Positions 9,415-26,341 of a DNA stretch of 64,000 bases are shown one piece after another. The stretch comes from an uncultured Candidatus Saccharibacteria bacterium (GTDB lineage Bacteria; Patescibacteriota; Minisyncoccia; Phycocordibacterales; UBA9973). Every line of letters starts with the position of its first letter. Position 1 is the stretch's first letter. A program made the translations under genes and the position numbers. The stretch lies in the NCBI GenBank assembly GCA_964624665.1, contig CAZUZG010000001.1:7310-71309 (forward strand), given 5' to 3'. Under the pieces are notes generated by a model, which saw only the letters and a list, made by a program, of their open reading frames with translations, was not told the origin of the DNA and did not search any database.

Positions 9415-12400
9415 TTATTCCTTCTTCGTTCTCTTTATTGAATCATAAACAATCTTAGAAATAGCATCCCTCTTGTTTTTTTTATCTTCCTCCGACAATT
9501 CCTCAAAGTTTACTTTCACCCGATACCCCTTAACTGTTTCCTCTGATGTACTTTCTTTTGCAATTACATTCAATAAATAATCTTGTATTTCACCTGGCTC
9601 AAAAACAAAGACTCTTTGAATATCCACTAAGTCAATATTAGCCTGGACAGTTTTTCTAATTTTCTCAATGTTCTTTTTTTCAGTTGGGCAGACTATAACA
9701 AAATTATAACCTGCCTTTAGACACTTCTTCACATTCTGTAATTCGTGCGCATCGCTTGTAGTAGAAGAAATTTCAACTGCAATTTTTAAATTGTTGCGGA
9801 TTAGCCCAACATCAACCTTTCCATTTGGTATCGCTTCTTCAATGGTTGCTTTAAAGCCAAAGGATTCGGCTATTCGTTTAATGAAGTTTTGAAAATACCG
9901 GTGTTCTGTTTCTTCTTTTTTAACTGGCGGCATCTTCGGTCCCTTTATAGCCTCAACTAAATTTTGGGAAACCTGATCTGATACAAATTCTTTTACTGTT
10001 TCTTTTTCAACTGGCTTCTCTTGTTTTATTGGCTTGGGTACTGATTGAACTGGCTCTGGCTTTTCTTCTTTTAAAGTTTCTGATTGGTAATAGAAGCGTG
10101 CAATTAATTCTTCAATCTCAGCTTTAGGTTTGCTGTATTTATCTCTCGAAAGATTTGTTATCTCTCTCCTTCTGCGCTTCCCTATCTCTGAATCTATATT
10201 CGGATTATTAAACACACTTAGGTTAAAGTCATTATCCGGCTTATCTATTTTTACAATCGCTTCTCCAGTTTCTAAATTCTGTAAGTTCTTTGAATCAAAG
10301 AAGGTAAAGCCATCGGCCAATTTACGGCTGTCTACTTCTCCTACCTTAAAGCAAATTCTTGTTCCGGCATTAGTTATTGAATTCGCTAAATCAACATCAC
10401 TCCTTGATAGTTGTAACAGGTCTTGGTGTGAAAGAGTAAGTCCCAAGCTAAATTTACGTCCCCCGGAAAGTATTGATTCCATTGAGGGGCTTAAAAAATA
10501 TTGGCATTCATCTACATAAACAAAAAAAGGTTTTCTATCTTCTTCTCTTATTAATTGTCTCGCAATTGCGACTTGATGTATTTTAGAGAGAATAAGGCTG
10601 CCTAAAAGATTGCTGTTCTCGATTCCAATCAATCCCTGTGATAGTTTTATCAGTAGTATCTTGTTTGAATTTACTATTTCATCAAAATTCAATCCGTCTC
10701 TTTGCGCAACCATATTGCGGATAAGTTTTGGGCGAAGGAATGAATCCAGGCGGGTTAATATCGGTCCGATTGAGTTGGTGCGTAATAACGGGTATTCTTT
10801 TTGCCAGTAATATACAATGCTTGGTTCGGTAACTGTTTTTAGAAATTCCGTCCTGAATGCCTTATCAACCAAAAATCTTTTTAAATCAATTAATGTGCCT
10901 CCGGCTTTGCTTTCAATAAAGGCGGCAACCGCATTGGCAAGTACGGCTGACATTTGTGCACCCCAGCCGGTTGTATATCTTTGGAATATAGAAACAAGGT
11001 CGGATGACAAAACATCCTTTTCAATTTCTGAATAGGCTTTCAAAATATTTATACCAACAGGAAACTCGGCGTCCGAGGGATCAACCAAGACTATGTCTTT
11101 ACACCTATTCTCCGGGATATGCTCAATTATGGAATCTATTAGATCACCATGTGGATCAAGCACAGCGCACCCTTTACCGCTTTTAATATCCTGAATTATT
11201 AAATTTTCCAAGAGCGTTGATTTTCCAGAACCCGTGACACCTATGACATGAAGATGTTTTAGGCGCTGGGTTGCACTTAGAGAAACTTTTGTTCCGCTAT
11301 CTCCGCAAACATTTTCGCCTAAGATAAAATCATGGCCTAAAGCAATGGCTGGCGCAGCTTTGGATTTCTTTGGTTCTGAATATATTTTTGTCGAGTTAAA
11401 TGAATGCGGAAAATGAACCAACGAAACAAGTTCTTCGCTGTTTAAAATCATTCCGCTTAAATGCGTTTGCCTTAATTTAAAGTCCTCATATCTTGTTTCA
11501 AATGGATAATCATCATGGGTTATTGGTATAAAGGCATTACTGCTTGGGTCTTTGAAAGTAGAAAAGGCCGTGCCAACATTAATGCCAAGTTCTAATACCT
11601 TTCGATCATCTAAACCTTGAACAAAAGTATTTACAACAACAGCAAATAAAGGTTTTGAAATTTTCTTCTTTGTCAGTTGTGCCATATCCGGCGCATCTGA
11701 AAAATATGATTCACCCTTGTGATTCATCACTGCCTTCACAATACTTTCAGACCAGGGCTTTTCAACTCCTTTAAATAGTACTTGCATGGCGCAAACTTCA
11801 CCATCCCGAAGATTATCCATTAGTCCCAACAATGCTATTAAAGGATCAAGTGAAAAACTCTTGTATGTTTTTATCGGGCGCATAAATTCTTCGGCAAGCC
11901 CAATACCATATATGGCGGAATTTCGTTCCTGAACTATGGCTTTGTTTAAGACTTCTTTTTCTTCTTGTAAAAAAGCATTGGGAAAAAATGTCTTTAATTG
12001 ATTGCGTAATTGATTAGCATCTGCGCTCCGGCATACATACTGGCAAACAATTCTCAGTTTGGTCCCGATTATCTCAAATGCAATTGGATATTTTGAATAA
12101 CTGAGCAGGGTTAAGAAACTTTCCGCTTCTTCTCCGCTAAATCTTTCGCCTTTCGGAAATGATATTTGTATTTCGTGATAGCCTGTTTGTCCGTCAAGCC
12201 TTTTAGGTTGGATATATTCTTCATCATCCGAAACAAAATTTCTATTAATATCCTGGTCAGATGAAACTACACCGACACTTTTAAAAAACGATTCAAATAG
12301 TCCGGTATTCGTCGGAGCATTATTCTGTCCCTTTGCATATCCTTTAAATGGCTTAAACGGCGGTTCTAATTCAACTGGATAGTCCCACAATAGCCAACCT

Positions 12401-12462
12401 CTGCCGCGACCTTCCCAGGAATAAAACTGCTCTGATATATTTTCGCCAAATGGTATATACAT
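9415..12462 (-). CDS. Large HerA/FtsK/TraD-like (DUF87-type) P-loop ATPase with ~400-aa N-terminal and ~300-aa C-terminal extensions
   Basis: Walker A HLHVIGVTGSGKSTL; KGCAVLDPHGDL motif; Walker B KPFFVYVDECQYF; LGLTLSHQDLLQL sensor region. Paralogous to ORF 60219..61514. The C-terminal region (GKVDVGLI..KIAVEISS..NFVIVCP) has an alternating beta/alpha pattern that could be a restriction-endonuclease-like fold; this is inference. Confidence 0.7.
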   Translation of the reverse strand: MYIPFGENISEQFYSWEGRGRGWLLWDYPVELEPPFKPFKGYAKGQNNAPTNTGLFESFFKSVGVVSSDQDINRNFVSDDEEYIQPKRLDGQTGYHEIQISFPKGERFSGEEAESFLTLLSYSKYPIAFEIIGTKLRIVCQYVCRSADANQLRNQLKTFFPNAFLQEEKEVLNKAIVQERNSAIYGIGLAEEFMRPIKTYKSFSLDPLIALLGLMDNLRDGEVCAMQVLFKGVEKPWSESIVKAVMNHKGESYFSDAPDMAQLTKKKISKPLFAVVVNTFVQGLDDRKVLELGINVGTAFSTFKDPSSNAFIPITHDDYPFETRYEDFKLRQTHLSGMILNSEELVSLVHFPHSFNSTKIYSEPKKSKAAPAIALGHDFILGENVCGDSGTKVSLSATQRLKHLHVIGVTGSGKSTLLENLIIQDIKSGKGCAVLDPHGDLIDSIIEHIPENRCKDIVLVDPSDAEFPVGINILKAYSEIEKDVLSSDLVSIFQRYTTGWGAQMSAVLANAVAAFIESKAGGTLIDLKRFLVDKAFRTEFLKTVTEPSIVYYWQKEYPLLRTNSIGPILTRLDSFLRPKLIRNMVAQRDGLNFDEIVNSNKILLIKLSQGLIGIENSNLLGSLILSKIHQVAIARQLIREEDRKPFFVYVDECQYFLSPSMESILSGGRKFSLGLTLSHQDLLQLSRSDVDLANSITNAGTRICFKVGEVDSRKLADGFTFFDSKNLQNLETGEAIVKIDKPDNDFNLSVFNNPNIDSEIGKRRRREITNLSRDKYSKPKAEIEELIARFYYQSETLKEEKPEPVQSVPKPIKQEKPVEKETVKEFVSDQVSQNLVEAIKGPKMPPVKKEETEHRYFQNFIKRIAESFGFKATIEEAIPNGKVDVGLIRNNLKIAVEISSTTSDAHELQNVKKCLKAGYNFVIVCPTEKKNIEKIRKTVQANIDLVDIQRVFVFEPGEIQDYLLNVIAKESTSEETVKGYRVKVNFEELSEEDKKNKRDAISKIVYDSIKRTKKE

Positions 12463-16136: not shown

Positions 16137-17300
16137 CTAAATTTTTATTGGAGGTTTACTTTTCTTCCTTCTTTTCAATTCAATTTCAATTTCTGAAAGC
16201 TCAGCGTTTTTATTTCTAATATCCATTTTATGATTTAAAAAATGAATATATTTCATCGGACCAACGATTCTATTTAAAGCCGGAATAATTACAATACTTA
16301 TTCCATCGCCAATTTTATCCTTGAAATCATAGGCAGATTTATCAATTTTAACAGAAGCCCAAATCGAATTGTATAATGTAATCGTTAACGCAACGCAGTC
16401 TGGTAAATTTAAGAGGGTTATCAAATGCCCTCCTTCCCAACCATAGAATTCCAACAAGTCATCTTTTTTGTTTGGATCAAAGAAACTCATTCCGTGAAGG
16501 GGGATATTTTCCCGTTCTTCTTTTGTCTTTGCCCACATATATTTTCTTAATCTTTCAGCCTCAAGGCTTTTCACAAAATTTTCACCCAAAAATTTTGCTC
16601 CCATACCTAAAGCCATCTTTGCTAAAAATCTGTTTTCAGCAAAAGGAGTGAATTCAAATCCTACCTCAAGTACTTTTTTCTTAAATAACTTATTATTTAG
16701 TTTCTTTAATTCACTGGGAATTTCAGAAAACACATTACCTGGTGGCTTATCTCCATTTCCAAGAAACAGTTGTGAGCCTTTAAACTTCTTAATGAAAGAC
16801 CTAAAAATAGTTGGGTGCCATGCTTTATTATTACTGACAACAAAAAGAAAAGCGAACCCTTTATCTACATCACTCTTTTTTAAATATGGCGGTATTCCAA
16901 CCACCGCCGGATATGATTTTGAATCAGAATAAGGAATATGAAAATGGTAAATTGAATCACCTGTTGGTCCAATCCAAACATCACAAATTTTACCTTCATA
17001 GGTAACCGAGCTTAACTTCCCCATGTATTTTAAAGGCAGTACCGGATTATCTTCAATTTTCGCGTAATCTCTATAATGAGTTGATAATTGGGATTGCATA
17101 AACCAGCCTTTCACCGCAGGAGCATCGATAAATCTACCAGCAAGATTATTACAATTACCACACACATTTGGAATGGTAAAAAGGTTGTTTTTAGGTGTGC
17201 CAATTAAGGATTTTGGCAAAATATGTTCTTTGGAAAACCTATATTTTTCTCCCAAAGCTTTCAGCTCATCACTATCCCTTCCACAGTAAACACAAACCAT
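16137..17300 (-). CDS. HNH-endonuclease-domain protein with long C-terminal domain of unknown function
   Basis: N-terminal CVYCGRD...FSKEHILPKSL...VCGNCNN matches the CxxC...EHIxP...CxxC HNH zinc-finger nuclease layout. 387 aa. Confidence 0.55.
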   Translation of the reverse strand: MVCVYCGRDSDELKALGEKYRFSKEHILPKSLIGTPKNNLFTIPNVCGNCNNLAGRFIDAPAVKGWFMQSQLSTHYRDYAKIEDNPVLPLKYMGKLSSVTYEGKICDVWIGPTGDSIYHFHIPYSDSKSYPAVVGIPPYLKKSDVDKGFAFLFVVSNNKAWHPTIFRSFIKKFKGSQLFLGNGDKPPGNVFSEIPSELKKLNNKLFKKKVLEVGFEFTPFAENRFLAKMALGMGAKFLGENFVKSLEAERLRKYMWAKTKEERENIPLHGMSFFDPNKKDDLLEFYGWEGGHLITLLNLPDCVALTITLYNSIWASVKIDKSAYDFKDKIGDGISIVIIPALNRIVGPMKYIHFLNHKMDIRNKNAELSEIEIELKRRKKSKPPIKI

Positions 17301-17482: not shown

Positions 17483-18505
17483 CTAATTTTCTTTACCGAA
17501 GTAATCGCAATCACCAGGTACTTTCCCAAAAAAAACAAAAGAGATCATCTCCATAATTGTTGGCAATTGTTTCCCTTTTTTATTTTTAAAAATTATTCTT
17601 CTATGTTTTCTACTGAAATTTTTATATACAACAGATTTAAAAAAAATGTTCCTTTCTGGAATCCATCCATCAATAAGCATTTGAAAATTAACAGGAAATT
17701 GGCAAGGCCCCCAAACTTTTCCATTAACCATTACCATTCTTGGTAGGAATGCCATTACTTGAGATGCATTTCTTTCCCATAGATTAGTATCGATTGTCCC
17801 ATTATTAGGAAGAAAAATTGCTACAGATTTTGGACCAATACCATTATTCCTAAATGAGGCGCATTGGATTATTTTAGAAGAATAGTTGATAATATCATGC
17901 GGATTTGCATTTGAAGAAACTATTTTTGAAAGAGTTTCTTTTTCTAATATGGTCACAGCGCTAGTCATTCCTCCAATCATATAGTCTGCTTGTTCAACTG
18001 TTTTAAAAAATAAATTGAACCCATTAATTTGATATTCACGTTCAAAATCAGCAGTTATATACCAAGGTTTAGTCTTGGTGAAGTTTGAGATACATGCCAT
18101 AAATGGCATAGGTAATTGTTTATGAAAGCCAACTATATGCAATTCCAAGTATGGAAAAGTGCCTTTAATTTTACTAATTGCTTTTGAAATATCTTCTGTA
18201 AGTTCTAACACAATTTCACCAAAACCGAAATTCTTATTTGCACTTTTAGAAAGAGAATCTGAAATGATATCATAGGTTTTCACTTTCTTTCCTGAATCAT
18301 ACCATTCAGCTACGCCAGTGTATGAAATATTTGCGCCTAATTCTTCAATATTGAATAATATGTGCTTATTAAAGTTTTCATCTACAGAAATATATGTGTT
18401 ACCCCTTTGAACTGATACCCTCATATCTGAATTTGATATGCATTGATTTACTCTAGCGATTGTTAATAAGAGAGTCATATTTATTTGCGCTTGCTTCCAA
18501 TGCAA
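17483..18505 (-). CDS. Hypothetical protein (340 aa)
   Basis: Long ORF with no recognisable motif. Confidence 0.45.
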   Translation of the reverse strand: MHWKQAQINMTLLLTIARVNQCISNSDMRVSVQRGNTYISVDENFNKHILFNIEELGANISYTGVAEWYDSGKKVKTYDIISDSLSKSANKNFGFGEIVLELTEDISKAISKIKGTFPYLELHIVGFHKQLPMPFMACISNFTKTKPWYITADFEREYQINGFNLFFKTVEQADYMIGGMTSAVTILEKETLSKIVSSNANPHDIINYSSKIIQCASFRNNGIGPKSVAIFLPNNGTIDTNLWERNASQVMAFLPRMVMVNGKVWGPCQFPVNFQMLIDGWIPERNIFFKSVVYKNFSRKHRRIIFKNKKGKQLPTIMEMISFVFFGKVPGDCDYFGKEN

Positions 18506-18764
18506 TTTACAAATAAAATAATAAAATCTTATTTCCCTTATAGTGAACTACATACCAAAGTCAAAATTATTTTATGGCACCTTTTCATCGATTTAGCCTC
18601 CCTTTTCCTAAAAAGAGTATCTTCGAATACGTTTAGGATTCTATCTACATCTTTTTGGATAAGACGGAGTACTATTCCTTTCAGGCTATATCTAAACGAC
18701 TATTGCAATTTGATAAAAATCTATAAAAAAGGAATCAAATATTTTTTAAATTTGAATTGGTATT

Positions 18765-19628
18765 TTGAAAATCAAAAAGGAAAATAAGGAAATTGCCAAT
18801 ACAAATTTTACTGAAAATTCAGTCGAAAAGAATGCCCTTTTACCCCAAGATGCGTTCCTGAAAAAATTTAAGATTTCACCAAAACTTTTTGAATCAACAG
18901 AAATAAAATGGAACGAATTACAAAAAATCCATGCACATTATATTAAAAATCAGGAATTCCTACAAAATACTGTTAACACAATTATTTCAAAATTTGTAAC
19001 AAATGATGCCAAAGATGTTGGGGTTCACTCTGTACGTTCTCGTTTGAAAAAGCCAGATAGTTTAATTGAAAAAATTATTCGAAAGACTATTGATGCAAGG
19101 AAAAAAGGTGGTAATCGAAATATTACGGTTAGAAATTATGGTAATGAAATTAATGATCTAATTGGTATAAGAATATTACATGTTTTTAAAGATGATTGGT
19201 TCGGAATTCACAATTTTATTTTAAGCAATTGCGAATACAAGACAAAAGGAAAACCACTCGCTTACTATAGGAAAGGTGATGAAAAATCATTTATTTCAGA
19301 ATGTAAAAAAAATGGATGTGATGCAAAAGTGCATCCAAAGGCATATAGGTCTATTCATTATATTATTAATCCATATCCTCAACAAAAAATTGGATTTGCT
19401 GAAATTCAAGTTAGAACGGTTTTTGAAGATGGTTGGAGTGAAATAGATCATAAGCTTAGATACGCTTCTAAAAAAGGAACAAAAAATAAATTAGATAGCT
19501 ATTTACTCGCTTTAAATAGAATAGCGGGAAGTGCGGACGAAATTGGAACTATTATAAGAAATAGACAAACAGAATTAAGGCAGGCAGAGTATGAGAGACA
19601 ACTTAATGTTAAAAAAGGAAACAAGTGA
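18765..19628 (+). CDS. RelA/SpoT-domain nucleotidyltransferase (small alarmone synthetase-like; toxSAS-like)
   Basis: All four synthetase motifs are present: VGVHSVRSRLKKPDSLIEKI; INDLIGIRILHVFKDDW; HPKAYRSIHYII; AEIQVRTVFEDGWSEIDHKLRYA (EiQiRT...W.E..H). No HD hydrolase domain. 287 aa. Confidence 0.75.
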   Translation: MKIKKENKEIANTNFTENSVEKNALLPQDAFLKKFKISPKLFESTEIKWNELQKIHAHYIKNQEFLQNTVNTIISKFVTNDAKDVGVHSVRSRLKKPDSLIEKIIRKTIDARKKGGNRNITVRNYGNEINDLIGIRILHVFKDDWFGIHNFILSNCEYKTKGKPLAYYRKGDEKSFISECKKNGCDAKVHPKAYRSIHYIINPYPQQKIGFAEIQVRTVFEDGWSEIDHKLRYASKKGTKNKLDSYLLALNRIAGSADEIGTIIRNRQTELRQAEYERQLNVKKGNK

Positions 19629-19887
19629 GATTATGTTAGATACAGCGATCGGTCCCATAATAAGAATTATAGACGCAAATTCTTTCCAGATGCAGGTGAC
19701 ACATATCGGCAGGCATAATGCTTATTCGTATGCAAACTATGAAACTGTGTGTATTGCCCCTAACCCAAACTTAATCCATGCAACTCAATTATCGACAGCT
19801 TTAATTGGTAGAAGAATAAAATGTAAAGTTCAATATAGAGATAATTACAACCGGCTTTATGGGGAAGTTGAATTTGATAACTCTTAG
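19591..19887 (+). CDS. Small degenerate staphylococcal-nuclease (SNase)-like OB-fold protein, probably non-catalytic; overlaps the RelA/SpoT-like gene by 38 nt
   Basis: 98 aa. Alignable to SNase, but catalytic/Ca-binding residues are replaced (IDANSF in place of IDGDT; VCIAPNPN in place of RLLLVDTPE). Paralog of ORF 22335..22643. Confidence 0.5.
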   Translation: MRDNLMLKKETSEIMLDTAIGPIIRIIDANSFQMQVTHIGRHNAYSYANYETVCIAPNPNLIHATQLSTALIGRRIKCKVQYRDNYNRLYGEVEFDNS

Positions 19888-19920
19888 TTTGTAATTTTAT
19901 AAGTGTCTGATCGATTTCCC

Positions 19921-20131
19921 AGAGATGTACTGTATTTTCAGCAACACCAATAATTCCAGCCACCACTTTCTGACCTATCTGAAGTTCTGCCCTTCTCTTT
20001 CGAATATGCTCTCCTATTGTATTCATAGGCATTCTTGTTAATTCAGGCTTGATCGCTCTTAAAGTGACCGGATAAAGAGGTAGATTTTCTTTAATTATTT
20101 GGAGAATTTCCTCAATAGTTTGAACCTTCTT
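19921..20131 (-). pseudogene. Remnant of the 3' end of a paralogous large serine recombinase gene (C-terminal ~70 codons including the HTH)
   Basis: Minus-strand translation upstream of the 90-aa ORF reads ...IIKENLPLYPVTLRAIKPELTRMPMNTIGEHIRKRRAELQIGQKVVAGIIGVAENTVHLWE. This is collinear with recombinase 20205..21956 C-terminus ...TILSLAYPLRPVVLKGIKPEFKRLPVNTLGDHLRKRRKELGLFQKDVAIILKISEDSLTYWE. It begins directly after an in-frame stop at 20132-20134, so no N-terminal part is present. Confidence 0.65.
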
Positions 20132-20204: not shown

Positions 20205-21956
20205 CTAAAATCCTGGAGAATATCCTAGAAATTCTATGATCGTAGCATGGTGCTTTTTTTGAGGTTTAGCCCTTCCATTTTCCCAATAAGTCAACGAATC
20301 TTCACTTATTTTTAAGATAATTGCCACATCTTTCTGGAAAAGCCCGAGTTCCTTCCGCCGCTTCCTTAGGTGGTCACCTAATGTATTGACGGGCAGTCTT
20401 TTAAACTCTGGTTTTATGCCTTTTAAAACTACCGGCCTCAATGGATAGGCAAGAGAGAGAATGGTCAATGAAACTATGTGGTTTCGTAGACCATTCTCTG
20501 TGAATTTCGGAGAGGCATTGAGGTTGTTGAGCGTAATCTCAATCTCGGTTTTGTTGACTATTATCTTGTTGGTAATGGATTCAATAATAAAGCGCTTGTC
20601 TTCATCGTTGTAGGTTCCCCAATTTTCATAAACGTTTTGGCTTTTGGAAATTGCCTCATTGTTGTTTATGACCTGAATCTTCATAAAATCGACATCGGAT
20701 TGGATAATGGCTAATTCCTCCTCTTTTTGGTTTAAACGCTCTTGTATGGGCATATAGCGCTTATTAAACCCTTCTTTGGGTATCTCTTGGCTGTTTAATA
20801 GGTCAAATAGAGTATCTATCTCAGAATTGATTTTTTTAATGTCAGCTTTAAGCAAATCCCTTTTTTGTTCGCTTTCTTTTACAATATTCTCATTGTCTTT
20901 GAAATGATCTGAAACATCGGTGGTGTTCCAGTATTTTTTGACTTCGTAAAGGAATACTTCCTCGATGTCGGGAATTGTGATTTTGTTCCGGCATTTGGTG
21001 CAAGTATATTTTTTGATACTTGGGATTACATACATCTTGTGATTTGGGTCACAATAGCAGAACATTAAGCCAGAGAATAGGTTAATGGTTTTCTTAGGTT
21101 GCTTCACTCTGTTTATCTTATTCCCATTCAAAATGGAAATACACTGGTTGAATGTTTCTTCTGAAATAATGGCCGGAGCAGGATTAATTATCCATTCGGA
21201 TTCAGGTTTTAACTTCCAGGCCTTTTTATCACCTGTAGACTTGGTATAGTTGCGGATTCTTGAACCCATAGCAATTGGGTCCCGAAGTAACCGGTCTATG
21301 GTTGCATCTGAGAATTCTGAATTATTCCGAGTTCTATATCCCCTCCTATTCAGTTCGTTCGCTACAGTTAATTTGCGTTTGTGCTTTAGGAATAAGTCAT
21401 ACATTAGTTTACGGACTTTAGATTCTTCCTCGTTTATTGCAAGATTCTTTGCTGAATCATACATATATCCAAAAGGGGCTGCGCCACCTAAAGGTTTGCC
21501 CATCTTTGCGCGAATTGGCACACTAGCCGCAACACGTTCAGCGATTTCTTCCCTTTCAAATTGGGCTAATGCTGCAATGACGGTAAAGAATAGCCGTCCT
21601 GCGCCGGAGCTGGTATCAATGCTTTCGTGAAGGCTAATGAGGTCGGCATCATGTTTACGGAACATTTCAGCAAAGCTTAATAGTTCCGTTGTGTTTCTTG
21701 ATAGCCTGGCAAGCTTTGAGAATATTAAGCCAGTGATCTTACCCGATTTAATGTCGCTTAGCATCTTGGCTGTTTCAGGATAATCCATTACTGATTTTCC
21801 TGATTTCGCATCGAGTCTATACATTTCTTTTACCTCCCACCCTTTGGCTTCGGCATATAGTCGCCCACGCTTTTCGTGAACCTCTGGGCTTTCACTATTT
21901 ACTGAGTCTTCATGGCTTACACGAATCCATAGTCCTACTGATTTACTGCTTTGCAT
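20205..21956 (-). CDS. Large serine recombinase (resolvase domain + recombinase domain + zinc ribbon) with C-terminal XRE-like HTH
   Basis: GLWIRVSHEDS (catalytic Ser context) and LHESIDTSSGAGRLFFTVIAALAQFEREEIAERV (resolvase); CYCDPNHKMY...CTKCRNK (zinc ribbon); C-terminal LGDHLRKRRKELGLFQKDVAIILKISEDSLTYWENG. Confidence 0.85.
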   Translation of the reverse strand: MQSSKSVGLWIRVSHEDSVNSESPEVHEKRGRLYAEAKGWEVKEMYRLDAKSGKSVMDYPETAKMLSDIKSGKITGLIFSKLARLSRNTTELLSFAEMFRKHDADLISLHESIDTSSGAGRLFFTVIAALAQFEREEIAERVAASVPIRAKMGKPLGGAAPFGYMYDSAKNLAINEEESKVRKLMYDLFLKHKRKLTVANELNRRGYRTRNNSEFSDATIDRLLRDPIAMGSRIRNYTKSTGDKKAWKLKPESEWIINPAPAIISEETFNQCISILNGNKINRVKQPKKTINLFSGLMFCYCDPNHKMYVIPSIKKYTCTKCRNKITIPDIEEVFLYEVKKYWNTTDVSDHFKDNENIVKESEQKRDLLKADIKKINSEIDTLFDLLNSQEIPKEGFNKRYMPIQERLNQKEEELAIIQSDVDFMKIQVINNNEAISKSQNVYENWGTYNDEDKRFIIESITNKIIVNKTEIEITLNNLNASPKFTENGLRNHIVSLTILSLAYPLRPVVLKGIKPEFKRLPVNTLGDHLRKRRKELGLFQKDVAIILKISEDSLTYWENGRAKPQKKHHATIIEFLGYSPGF

Positions 21957-22334
21957 TGTTACTGAATTTAAGAGTTAATTTACTGAATCTTGGTTTAATA
22001 AAAAATTAAATTTTTCAAAAGAAAAAAGGACAAAAAAGAAAGCGATAATAAAAAGCACGGGTTTCTTGGTGTCAAGGTTTTTTGAACAAAATATTTTTAC
22101 TTCAAAAAATTAACGCTAAAATATATTTTCAAAAACTTGTATAACCTTTACTCCAAGAAACACGTGCTTACCTTTGCGACCTTTTTTGTTTTTTCATTTG
22201 GAAAACAGGGAGATTTAAAATGTGTCGAAACTCACCCAATTTTTTTTTAAAATCATTAGTTGGTTTGCCTGCAAAGTATATATTAGCAATCGAATAAGAA
22301 AATTTCAAAAAATTATTATTTGTAAAAACAAATT

Positions 22335-22643
22335 ATGGTAGCTCAGGTACGAGGCAAAAAGAAAGAAACTATGTTTGATACTATTATCGGGTCGGTTGTA
22401 AGCATTGCTAATGGCAATACCTTTACAATGCAAGTTACCCATATTGGTATTAATAATATTCTTTCTTACAAAAACCTTGAGATTATAAGAATAATTGACA
22501 AGGAGTCTGCTGACCTATCAACAACCAAAGGATTTTCTGATAAAAAAGAACTTTCTAATCTTTTAATTGGGAAAAAGATTAAATGCAAAATTCATCACAG
22601 AAACGAATACAATATACTCTTAGCCAATATTGAAATAATTTAA
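22335..22643 (+). CDS. Degenerate SNase-like OB-fold small protein (paralog of 19591..19887)
   Basis: VVSIANGNTFTMQVTH / LEIIRIIDKES / ELSNLLIGKKIKCKIHHRNEYNILLANIEI align with SNase ATLIKAIDGDTVKL / FRLLLVDTPET / [34 protein letters not shown]. D21/D19 become N and R87 becomes I. Confidence 0.5.
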   Translation: MVAQVRGKKKETMFDTIIGSVVSIANGNTFTMQVTHIGINNILSYKNLEIIRIIDKESADLSTTKGFSDKKELSNLLIGKKIKCKIHHRNEYNILLANIEII

Positions 22644-23235
22644 ACTCAAATTCTGCATTCATGGCAAGTGCAATGAAATAAAATATTAGGTATGGCACAA
22701 AAGGGGCAAGCATATTTTATTTATTGCTCTTGCACTCAGGCGGGTGTTTTTGTGATTAAATAAATTTGGTCTTGCTCTGCAAGGCGATTTATTTAATTAC
22801 AAAAACACGAAGGGTTGGCGTGGGTCAGCTGTGCGGCTATTTACACATAATGCCAATTATATTGTGAAGAAATTAACTCCGCGCGAAGCGCACCTTTGAA
22901 AAAGTCTGAGCGATATAATTTGCATTATGTTATATAGCTTAGGGCTATATTTTCATCGCATCCTTTTTTGTGTGTAAGCCAACTCTTTTCAACCACAGCT
23001 TCGTTTTGACGAAGCGAGGATTGGAATGGGTTGTTTGTGGGCGGATAAAAAAATGCGGTGAAAATATAGCAGAAGGGCTGGCGTGCGGAAGCGGCAAAAA
23101 TACAGTAAAGCCCGAAGCATGAAGGGCAGTGGATTTTTGCCGCTGGGGACTTTTTTGCTCTTTCGATAATTCCCTTCTTATTATCTAAATGCTACGATCC
23201 ATTCAGAAGTTTCAACAAACAAAAACCTTTCTGAA
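22644..23235. other. ~590-bp GC-enriched non-coding region with several strong hairpins (candidate structured RNA or recombination/regulatory region)
   Basis: No long ORF. 10-bp inverted repeat TTAAATAAAT..(21 nt)..ATTTATTTAA at ~22755-22795; GCTTCG/CGAAGC hairpin at ~22997-23020; 11-bp stem GCGGCAAAAAT...ATTTTTGCCGC at ~23090-23145 followed by a T-run. The motif GG(T/C)TGGCGTG(G/C)G is repeated at ~22812 and ~23073. Confidence 0.35.
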
Positions 23236-23970
23236 ATGGAAACACTCAGCTCTTTCACATCAATTTTCGACAAAGTGGCCTATGGAAACAATTACACTAA
23301 AACATTCGATGATTTTCTTATTATGTGTCTTTGCGCATTCAGTAGAAATCCGGAAACAGGTTTATCCTATAATGAGGATGAATATTTACAAATCATTGAG
23401 CCTTACAAAAAAGATGATCGAGTAAAATATTTCCCACAACTATTAGGCTCAATGATTCTTTATATGGAGGACCATAAAGATAGTGATAGCGGAAACGACC
23501 TACTTGGCTCATTTTATGAAAAGGAGCTAAGCCTAGGAAAAAACGGGCAATTCTTTACCCCCTTTCATATTTGTTCGATGATGGCTAAAATGCAAGGGAA
23601 CCAAGATAAAAGCAGATCGCTTAATATTTTGGACCCATGCTGCGGAAGCGGGAGGATGCTTATGGCTCATGGGAAAAGTAACGGAGGATTCAACAATCAC
23701 TACGGAATAGATATTGACCCGTTATGCGTAAGAATGACAACAATAAACTTATTTCTAAATGGATTAAGCGGTGAAGTTATCTGCGCTAATGCACTTATAC
23801 CGGATGACTTTAGATTCGGGTATAGAATATCATTTCTTCCTTTCGGAGTTTTTAGAATTGATAAAAAAGAAGATTCTGTGCTTTGGCAAATTAATCAGGC
23901 TACATTTGAGTCGAGAATTGCAAATCATGAATCAAATAAGCCTACTCAGGAACAGCTACGATTATTTTGA
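23236..23970 (+). CDS. N6-adenine DNA methyltransferase-like protein, truncated (motifs X and I present, motif IV NPPY absent); probably a remnant or non-catalytic
   Basis: GQFFTPFHICSMMA (motif X) and ILDPCCGSGRML (motif I, SAM binding). No (D/N/S)PP(Y/F) follows within the 244 aa, whereas HsdM-like enzymes are about twice this length. Confidence 0.45.
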   Translation: METLSSFTSIFDKVAYGNNYTKTFDDFLIMCLCAFSRNPETGLSYNEDEYLQIIEPYKKDDRVKYFPQLLGSMILYMEDHKDSDSGNDLLGSFYEKELSLGKNGQFFTPFHICSMMAKMQGNQDKSRSLNILDPCCGSGRMLMAHGKSNGGFNNHYGIDIDPLCVRMTTINLFLNGLSGEVICANALIPDDFRFGYRISFLPFGVFRIDKKEDSVLWQINQATFESRIANHESNKPTQEQLRLF

Positions 23971-24988: not shown

Positions 24989-26341
24989 TTGATTATGATA
25001 AAACTATTAACCCGTTGTTTAACCTTCCTATTTATATTTCAATTAAGTAAAAATCTCAATGCTCAAATCATTACAACCATCGCTGGTGGAACATTAGGCT
25101 ACTCGGGTGATGGTGGTCCGGCGATAAGTTCTCAATTAACATATCCTGAAGGCGTTTGTGTAGATGATTCCGGCAATGTATATATCTCAGATGCAGGAAA
25201 TAATAGAATTCGAAAAATAAGCGCTTCAACAGGTTTTATTAATACAATTGCAGGTACGGGAACAGCAGGCTATTCTGGTGATAGCGGTCAAGCCGTTAAT
25301 GCTGAAATTAATCAACCTATTGGCATTGCGTTGAGTCGTTTAACCGGTGATGTATATTTTGCTGAGTATGGAAATAACACCATTCGAAAAGTAAATCAAT
25401 CGACAGGCTTAATATCAACCGTTGCAGGAACTGGGATAGCTGGTTATTCAGGAGATAACGGGCCTGCAATAAATGCGAAATTATATTTTCCACTGGGAGT
25501 TTGTTTGGATACTTTAGACAATGTTTATTTTTCGGATGCATGGTATGGACGTGTGCGAAAAGTGGAAGTTGCAACTGGAATTATAACAACGATAGTTGGA
25601 AATGGTATATCCGGTTATAATGGTGATGGAATTCTTGCAACAAATGCCCAATTAAATTATCCAACAGGGGTTTGTTTAGATGATTCCAGTAATTTATATA
25701 TAACAGATTGCTTTAATTCACGAGTAAGGAAAGTAAATGCAATTACAGGGCTCATTAGTACAATTGCCGGAAATGGAACTTCTGGCTTTTCAGGAGATGG
25801 CGGAATCGCAACCAGTGCAACATTAACAAGTCCTGCGGGAGTTTTTGTTGATGATACCGGACATGTTTATATTTCAGTTCCAAATAACAGAAGAATTAGA
25901 AAAGTAAATGCTTCTACTGGTATAATAACAACAATTGCAGGAAATGGTAGTGGAGGTTTTGCCGGAGATGGAGGACTTGCAACAGACGCAAAATTAAATA
26001 ATCCGAAAAGTCCATTTTTTGATAAACAAGGTAATTTATATATAGCGGATTCACAAAATAATAGAATTCGAAAAGTGGTATCTAATATTACCGCAATTAA
26101 GAATAGTGGAGGGCTCAGTGAAATTAGTATTTACCCTAATCCTGCTAACGAGCTGGTAAACATAACTGGTATAACGGGTGCAACCTCAATAAGGATGTAC
26201 GACGTGATCGGCAACTTAGTAATGCAAAAAGAAACAGATGTGAATACAACAATAGAAACAAATCAATTTGAAAATGGTATATACCTGCTTATTGTAAAAA
26301 GCGAAAAAGTATCAGTAAATAAAATTGAAATAAGTAAATAG
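24989..26341 (+). CDS. NHL-repeat beta-propeller protein with T9SS type A C-terminal sorting domain
   Basis: Signal peptide. Seven or more repeats of YP.GVcvD.sGNvYisD.gNnRIRKi..stG.I.TiAG.G..GysGDgG.A. C-terminus ISIYPNPANELVNITGITGATSIRMYDVIGNLV...GIYLLIVKSEKVSVNKIEISK is a Por_Secre_tail-type CTD. Confidence 0.8.
   Translation: MIMIKLLTRCLTFLFIFQLSKNLNAQIITTIAGGTLGYSGDGGPAISSQLTYPEGVCVDDSGNVYISDAGNNRIRKISASTGFINTIAGTGTAGYSGDSGQAVNAEINQPIGIALSRLTGDVYFAEYGNNTIRKVNQSTGLISTVAGTGIAGYSGDNGPAINAKLYFPLGVCLDTLDNVYFSDAWYGRVRKVEVATGIITTIVGNGISGYNGDGILATNAQLNYPTGVCLDDSSNLYITDCFNSRVRKVNAITGLISTIAGNGTSGFSGDGGIATSATLTSPAGVFVDDTGHVYISVPNNRRIRKVNASTGIITTIAGNGSGGFAGDGGLATDAKLNNPKSPFFDKQGNLYIADSQNNRIRKVVSNITAIKNSGGLSEISIYPNPANELVNITGITGATSIRMYDVIGNLVMQKETDVNTTIETNQFENGIYLLIVKSEKVSVNKIEISK

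Follow-up and report, generated by a model that had tools for sequence, protein, structure and literature searches.

A RelA/SpoT synthetase gene paired with a degenerate nuclease-fold gene: a proposed toxSAS-like module of Bacteroidota and Ignavibacteria

Introduction

Does a small gene lying directly behind a RelA/SpoT-type synthetase gene encode a partner of the enzyme, and what would the two proteins do together? The question is raised by a locus in a 64,000-nucleotide stretch of DNA from an uncultured Candidatus Saccharibacteria bacterium (GenBank assembly GCA_964624665.1, contig CAZUZG010000001.1, positions 7,310 to 71,309 of the forward strand), here called the window, whose own numbering is used throughout. 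A first-pass annotation had proposed there a candidate toxin-antitoxin (TA) pair of the toxSAS kind (toxic small alarmone synthetase), with an unusual antitoxin resembling staphylococcal nuclease (SNase). We found that the synthetase gene and the small gene, small1, belong to a self-contained module that moves horizontally and comprises two genes, or three in certain genomes; in the window a paralog of small1, named small2, lies further downstream. The small protein is predicted to have an oligonucleotide/oligosaccharide-binding (OB) fold derived from the SNase superfamily, and a toxSAS-like role is proposed for the pair and weighed below against its alternatives.

A conserved pair of genes

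The first gene occupies positions 18765..19628 of the forward strand, with a TTG start and a TGA stop at 19626-19628, and encodes the candidate toxin, a synthetase-only RelA/SpoT homolog of 287 residues, that is, a pyrophosphokinase of the small alarmone synthetase (SAS) type. Residues 92-236 match the Pfam profile RelA_SpoT (PF04607) with E=1.1e-18 and 68 bits, the curated cut-off being 27 bits, and the Pfam scan of the protein gave no HD, TGS, ACT or other domain; the open reading frame (ORF) with four RelA/SpoT motifs and no HD domain was thus confirmed as described, and its family is RelA/SpoT rather than another group of nucleotidyltransferases. The nearest solved relatives in a PDB sequence search were RelP and RelQ (E about 3e-7). 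The fold is likewise that of single-domain SASs: an alignment-based AlphaFold2 model (pLDDT, the predicted local distance difference test, of 85) had RelP and RelQ as its top Foldseek matches, with E about 1e-9 and 20-22% identity. In the model the first 20 residues are disordered, and the N-terminal helical region, of about 85 residues, is structured.

The residues of FaRel2 that serve the ATP donor site and the catalytic metal (R64, K66, S70, K74, R77, D90, G93, R95, E145 and Q147; PMC11782079) map one-to-one onto R93, K95, S99, K103, R106, D131, G134, R136, E213 and Q215 of the window protein. With R217 and T218 also present, the motifs R-x-K-x3-S-x3-K-x2-R, D-x2-G-x-R and E-x-Q-x-R-T are complete, and across 37 homologs the ATP-site and catalytic residues are invariant except S99. 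Since every donor-site and catalytic residue is present, we infer a catalytically competent, synthetase-only RelA/SpoT enzyme. The intergenic region upstream (18506..18764, forward strand) is presumed to hold the promoter of the module; read by eye, TAAATTTG at about 18748-18755 on the same strand is a candidate -7 box of the Bacteroidetes type. A sigma-70 promoter scan returned fewer matches than shuffled sequence, a result uninformative for this type of organism; the scan does not include the Bacteroidetes promoter type.

The second gene, small1, is the candidate antitoxin or partner and was first described as a 98-residue ORF overlapping the 3' end of the synthetase gene by 38 nucleotides. 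That longest form does exist (19591-19887), but gene callers in other genomes place the small gene 4-6 nt past the synthetase stop, with a length of 82-86 residues, and a start M(L/F)DT is conserved in 20 of 33 homologous small proteins as well as in the paralog within the window. On these two grounds the true start of small1 is ATG 19633, after a 4-nt spacer, and the gene runs on the forward strand from 19633..19887 (84 residues, TAG stop at 19885-19887); there is therefore no 38-nt overlap, which arose from taking the longest ORF. The extension upstream of the start appears conserved because it overlaps the conserved C-terminus of the synthetase in another frame.

Of two word-indexed searches with the small protein, the first retrieved 33 homologs and the second 72, each of them at E<=3e-23. 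The ratio of nonsynonymous to synonymous differences (pN/pS) was about 0.25 for the small gene and about 0.23 for the synthetase gene in a comparison whose synonymous sites are near saturation, and the two genes diverged equally in amino acids (pN 0.196 versus 0.188). Both are under purifying selection.

How constant is the pairing? For the synthetase, 806 homologs were detected, and 553 related loci from many phyla are present in the genome collection; 93 loci were examined. The relatives fall into two classes, a short one of about 280-290 residues and a long one of 340-500 residues in which a C-terminal extension of coiled-coil and low-complexity sequence follows the core. A conserved small gene downstream in homologous loci, on which the first-pass annotation had made its proposal depend, was found: the small gene directly follows the synthetase gene in 15/15 short-form loci first examined and likewise in three loci added later (L089, L092 and L093), with its start put by gene callers at 2-7 nt past the stop, and no adjacent small gene occurs in the long-form loci examined. 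When 84 distinct synthetase cores were placed in a neighbour-joining tree, the 14 with a partner grouped in one clade with no unpartnered member inside; they have 0-6 residues past the core, compared with a median of 102 in the 70 unpartnered ones. The gain of the partner therefore coincides with the loss of the C-terminal extension. In the material seen, all members of the partnered clade come from Bacteroidota and Ignavibacteria, and among the loci examined no intact synthetase of the clade is without its small gene.

The long-form extension matches no Pfam domain and does not resemble the small protein. The idea that it might be a fused copy of that protein was rejected, as the hidden Markov model (HMM) of the small family finds no match in those ORFs. 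Long-form relatives with 37-43% identity to the synthetase (L094, L256 and L257) were seen on elements of three sorts. The first are virulence plasmids of the pXO1 type from the Bacillus anthracis/cereus group, as in L094 (plasmid pCI-XO1 of B. cereus biovar anthracis, 166929-167978 of the record), where xerS is the neighbouring gene. The second is a PM2-like prophage of Vibrio, with most of the match falling in DNA that carries no annotation, and the third is a record bearing the label Ralstonia phage, which is unannotated and flagged UNVERIFIED_ORG. The wider synthetase family may recall the fpRel group of 2011, a guess from its taxon spread alone.

Origin of the small protein

We then asked what kind of protein small1 encodes. 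None of 34 members of the small family matched the Pfam SNase profile (PF00565), even at E<=10; searches of NCBIfam, PADLOC and PDB sequences with the small protein or its close homologs gave no SNase match; an hhalign comparison of the close small family with S. aureus nuclease gave a probability of 0.3%; and a viral fold library returned nothing significant. Of the two HMM comparisons suggested at the outset, the one with PF04607 thus gave a match and the one with PF00565 gave none directly.

The connection with SNase is a transitive one. An exhaustive HMMER profile search with the small family through 1.84 billion representative proteins yielded 224 related clusters, the distant relatives being "mini-SNases" of about 90 residues with the thermonuclease motifs V-D-G-D-T-F, R-I-A-x-I-D-A-P-E-L and R-D-x-Y-G-R. 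Four of the ten mini-SNases tested exceed the Pfam SNase gathering threshold (26-31 bits against 21), in matches that span only positions 1-59 of the 107 in the profile, and the mini-SNases align in register with S. aureus nuclease over DGDT, R35, D40, E43 and R87. At the other end of the chain, hhalign joins the small family of the window to the mini-SNase profile with a probability of 99.8% and E=8e-28. Through these motif-bearing intermediates the small1 protein is identified as belonging to the SNase superfamily, in a form that is truncated and catalytically dead; the earlier remark that the small ORF can be aligned to SNase therefore holds for a degenerate OB-fold relative reached through the mini-SNases, but not for a direct alignment.

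The predicted fold is an OB barrel, the core that small1 has in common with staphylococcal nuclease, and the protein ends 3 residues past the last barrel strand, without the C-terminal helices of SNase. Read across the alignments, D19 and D83 of S. aureus nuclease are kept as D14 and D70 of small1 and the catalytic R87 is kept as R74, whereas the Ca2+ ligands D21 and D40 have become N16 and P45 and the catalytic R35 and E43 have become C40 and I48. The substitutions noted earlier at the Ca site and at R35 stand with these assignments, but R87, also listed as substituted, is retained. Of the Ca2+ ligands D21, D40 and T41 and the catalytic R35, E43 and R87, it is the sole residue to persist, and small1 is not to be classed as a nuclease. 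A role as a nuclease toxin was considered for the small protein and rejected, since with D21, R35, D40 and E43 lost it cannot itself be one; like the SN domains of Tudor-SN, it probably serves for binding and not for catalysis. Within the small family N29, Y33, E37 and R69 are invariant polar residues, and C64 is nearly invariant.

The mini-SNases themselves (metagenome contigs L095-L111; proteins P0203-P0220) keep DGDT, R35, D40/E43 and R87, lack the C-terminal third of SNase and occur singly, in surroundings that vary and share no conserved neighbour. Among 160 loci of motif-intact mini-SNases and canonical thermonucleases, none adjoins a RelA/SpoT gene (0/160), so that the pairing is specific to the degenerate branch.

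Mobility, surroundings and decay of the module

The genes that flank the module differ in every genome and include those for DnaK, UvrC, an SMC-like ATPase, DUF6443/RHS-type proteins and a PBP, which makes the module an autonomous, horizontally moving unit. Often it lies within a defence island or in mobile DNA. In Ignavibacteria (about 60 contigs) it is surrounded by type IIG restriction-modification, EVE/NmeDI, RNase T-like, Abi_2, a Gp49/helix-turn-helix (HTH) pair and a Mu portal gene; one locus (L088) has DarT/Macro, PLD and UDG genes as neighbours, and two others (L092 and L093) have AAA_15 and AAA_23/SMC-like ATPases. The window follows suit, with an HNH-like gene, a 340-residue protein gene without family, a methylase fragment, a HerA/DUF87-like ATPase and a serine recombinase.

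In two loci the synthetase gene is broken and the small gene is intact. At 6001-8375 of L255, an IS3-type transposase pair (rve and HTH_Tnp_1) interrupts the synthetase gene at profile position ~205, and a short stretch is duplicated at the junction; this disruption is seen in three contigs from short-read assemblies. In L088 the synthetase lies in at least four frame-shifted pieces and the nearby DarT toxin gene is split in two (1797-2909 and 6448-7261 for these two features together).

Function of the pair

What, then, is the module for? We propose, as the best-supported reading, a toxSAS-like toxin-antitoxin or abortive-infection/defence system, which we hold to be about evenly balanced between right and wrong. 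The synthetase would take pyrophosphate from ATP and attach it at the 3' position of either a purine nucleotide (GTP/GDP or ATP/ADP), with (pp)pApp or (p)ppGpp as product, or the tRNA acceptor end, 3'-CCA; left unchecked, the enzyme would arrest growth. According to the literature, toxSAS enzymes that target tRNA carry no clear sequence signature. Encoded 4 nt downstream and probably translated together with the enzyme, the small1 protein would most likely neutralise it by direct binding that blocks a substrate site; a trigger such as phage infection would release the synthetase, and small2 would be an extra or alternative partner. What the data display are the domain identities, the intact catalytic residues, the strict co-occurrence of the two genes, their mobility, the defence-gene surroundings and the purifying selection; toxicity, direct binding, trigger and substrate are parts of this proposal inferred for the module.

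Toxin-antitoxin logic fits the variable flanks, the defence neighbourhoods and the two loci with a disrupted synthetase and an intact small gene. In earlier work a conserved TA-like arrangement predicted the toxicity of SASs, and RelP and RelQ, which are without such partners, were non-toxic (Jimmy et al., 2020; PMC7229694); because this arrangement was predictive, the tight and conserved bicistron of the window counts in favour of a toxSAS. With the bipartite toxSAS systems FaRel2-ATfaRel2 and PhRel2-ATphRel2 (Jimmy et al., 2020; Dominguez-Molina et al., 2024), the module has in common a synthetase-only enzyme with a small folded partner in a tight mobile bicistron, the ATP donor-site residues and the phage-defence neighbourhoods. 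It differs from them in that its enzyme appears to belong to another clade, closer to RelP/RelQ, that some genomes encode two paralogous partners, that the hosts are Bacteroidota and Ignavibacteria, and that the partner is a dead, truncated SNase with a predicted OB barrel. The neutralisers known for toxSAS enzymes are pZFD (ATfaRel2, the CapRel C-terminus and PAD1), Tis1-like proteins, small alarmone hydrolases (SAH) and Panacea/PanA (PMC11782079), so that, as the first-pass annotation had supposed, an SNase-like OB fold would be new among them. Neither the small protein nor its 33 homologs have a Pfam, NCBIfam or PADLOC match to pZFD, Tis1-like, SAH or PanA/DUF4065 families, and among the papers listed when the searchable literature was queried for toxSAS together with SNase and OB folds, none contains the word toxSAS. 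CapRel, an anti-phage system in which toxSAS and antitoxin are fused, offers a parallel in that the window enzyme family also has C-terminally extended and separately partnered forms; however, the extension of the long forms is coiled-coil and low-complexity sequence, and the structural match is weak.

Several observations weigh against the proposal. In both sequence and fold the synthetase is closer to the non-toxic RelP/RelQ than to known toxSAS enzymes: its Foldseek match to CapRel is the weaker one (E=3e-6, template modelling score about 0.4), neither FaRel2 nor Tas1 is among the structure matches listed, and PADLOC assigns neither the synthetase nor the small protein to a defence family. 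Typical antitoxins are acidic, whereas small1 has an isoelectric point (pI) of 7.8 and its family a median of 9.1; as the synthetase has a pI of 9.7, both proteins are neutral to basic and hence show no charge complementarity, and an OB fold that is basic would sooner be expected to bind nucleic acid than a toxin. The long-form relatives, including the gene of B. anthracis pXO1, stand alone with no adjacent partner, from which it follows that the enzyme family need not be lethal, unless the C-terminal extension acts as an internal inhibitor. Moreover, the asymmetry of decay comes from two loci only, one of which can be read in two ways, since DarT next to it is split as well; the frameshifts of L088 may record the decay of two toxins or may be indel errors of a long-read assembly.

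An alternative is a non-toxic (p)ppGpp synthetase like RelP/RelQ, for which the OB-fold protein is a regulatory subunit that takes the place of the lost C-terminal extension, for example by coupling the enzyme to single-stranded RNA or DNA. RelP and RelQ are its top sequence and fold matches, all synthetase motifs and a helical C-terminus are common to them and the window enzyme, the partner is present exactly where the extension was lost, and its basic OB fold is of a kind that binds nucleic acid; RelQ, besides, is regulated by single-stranded RNA. We nevertheless regard such a signalling pair as unlikely, though less so than the readings that follow. Its patchy distribution among ever-different flanks is unlike that of a housekeeping regulator, the module recurs among defence and mobile genes, and in one locus the partner was retained after an insertion sequence had disrupted the synthetase. 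The chromosomal RelP and RelQ, non-toxic and without TA-like partners (PMC7229694), also differ from the window enzyme in its conserved partner gene, its mobile contexts and its N-terminal helical region of ~85 residues.

The ancestry of the partner invites two further readings. A dead SNase fold may have been recruited as a new class of toxSAS partner that acts through recognition of nucleotides or nucleic acids and not by simple capping, which we think quite unlikely; by binding the 3'-pyrophosphorylated products or the 3' ends of tRNA such a protein might soak up product or shield the target, or it might respond to single-stranded nucleic acid of a phage and thereupon release the synthetase. 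Somewhat less likely still is a small protein that is no inhibitor at all, being instead a positive adaptor or sensor that presents a nucleic-acid 3' end or a 3',5'-phosphorylated nucleotide to the synthetase as substrate or activator, or a binder that soaks up the product. An origin among nucleotide- and nucleic-acid-binding SNases, the retained R74 and D70, the invariant N29, Y33, E37 and R69 with the nearly invariant C64, and the basic pI all agree with such a role, and SNase binds the 3',5'-bisphosphate pdTp, which is chemically like 3'-pyrophosphorylated products. However, the C-terminal third of SNase, which completes the nucleotide pocket with Y113 and Y115, is missing from the small protein, and a partner required for activity would hardly be kept after loss of the synthetase, as it was in L255. 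Finally, the order of toxin gene and small downstream gene is also that of an effector-immunity pair like Tas1-Tis1, in which a delivered synthetase toxin would be matched by a small immunity factor, and one module (L007) adjoins DUF6443/RHS-type genes; yet the synthetase has RelA_SpoT as its sole Pfam domain behind 20 disordered residues, with no detectable secretion or trafficking domain or signal, and no type VI or other secretion genes recur near the module in the loci examined. This last reading we consider highly improbable.

Were the toxSAS-like proposal correct, the pseudo-nuclease OB fold would form a fifth class of toxSAS neutraliser beside pZFD, Tis1-like, SAH and Panacea, and toxSAS biology would extend to Bacteroidota and Ignavibacteria. 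Should the dead SNase work through recognition, the SAS clade of these two groups would be marked as toxic effectors. If the toxSAS-like proposal holds, the exact coincidence of a lost C-terminal extension with a gained separate partner would also amount to a natural experiment within one enzyme family, which could show how fused and split regulation interconvert. A non-toxic pair would instead mean that alarmone synthetases have regulatory subunits of a novel sort. The dead-nuclease partner is small and tractable, with an ancestry that suggests nucleotide binding, and could reveal the acceptor substrate of the enzyme.

The second small gene and the rest of the window

The second small-protein gene, small2, lies on the forward strand at 22371..22643 (90 residues from its MFDT start; the upstream ATG at 22335 would give 102), 2.4 kb from small1. 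Both it and the serine recombinase between the two had been overlooked in the first-pass annotation. The small2 protein is 42% identical to that of small1 (E=2e-23), matches the family HMM with E=2e-32 and is orthologous to the second of two tandem copies in L003/L008 and L012, where that copy comes directly after the first, 372-420 nt past the synthetase stop and with a gap of about 80-170 nt behind the first copy; copies of the small2 type have the features EIIRI and RNEY(N/D)VLIADV in common.

In the window the intervening DNA carries, on the reverse strand, a large serine recombinase of 583 residues with Resolvase, Recombinase and C-terminal HTH_3 domains (20205-21956). Directly downstream of it, on the same strand, lies a remnant of 53 codons from the C-terminal HTH part of a second recombinase (about 19916-20074), 49% identical to residues 521-559 of the intact one. 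The G+C content of the recombinase segment is 0.37-0.41, compared with 0.29-0.33 in its flanks. In our reading the segment was inserted into an operon that ancestrally comprised synthetase, small1 and small2, and the remnant beside the intact gene looks like the trace of repeated integration at one spot; a search for att sites or direct repeats bounding the insertion found nothing convincing. Terminator-like hairpins on the forward strand appear only after small2, at 22729-22785, and are weak evidence. Two strong inverted repeats were noted, one of 27 nt with 89% complementarity (22053-22079 and 22143-22169) in the 378-nt region upstream of the recombinase gene and one of 22 nt with 95% (22744-22765 and 22787-22808) directly behind small2; possible roles for them are as recombinase sites, regulatory hairpins or a terminator.

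Immediately upstream of the module, two genes on the opposite strand may form a separate defence system: one encodes a 387-residue protein with a weak N-terminal HNH_5 match of 26 bits, just below the cut-off (16137-17300), and the other a 340-residue protein with no family match (17483-18505). Downstream, a forward-strand ORF of 244 residues (23236-23970) matches the first 131 of the 311 positions of the N6_Mtase profile and is probably a truncated restriction-modification methylase. Further to the left lie, on the reverse strand, the genes for a HerA/DUF87/TrwB-like ATPase of 1015 residues (9415-12462) and a DUF7379 protein (6930-8642), both surrounded by ORFs without family, and the entire region between about 6.9 and 24 kb has the look of an accessory or defence island. 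Beyond it the window holds a 450-residue NHL-repeat protein with a Por_Secre_tail sorting domain of the type IX secretion system (24989-26341), indicative of a host among the Bacteroidota, and a series of very large reverse-strand ORFs of 3241, 1288, 1922, 1937 and 655 residues (27662-57854).

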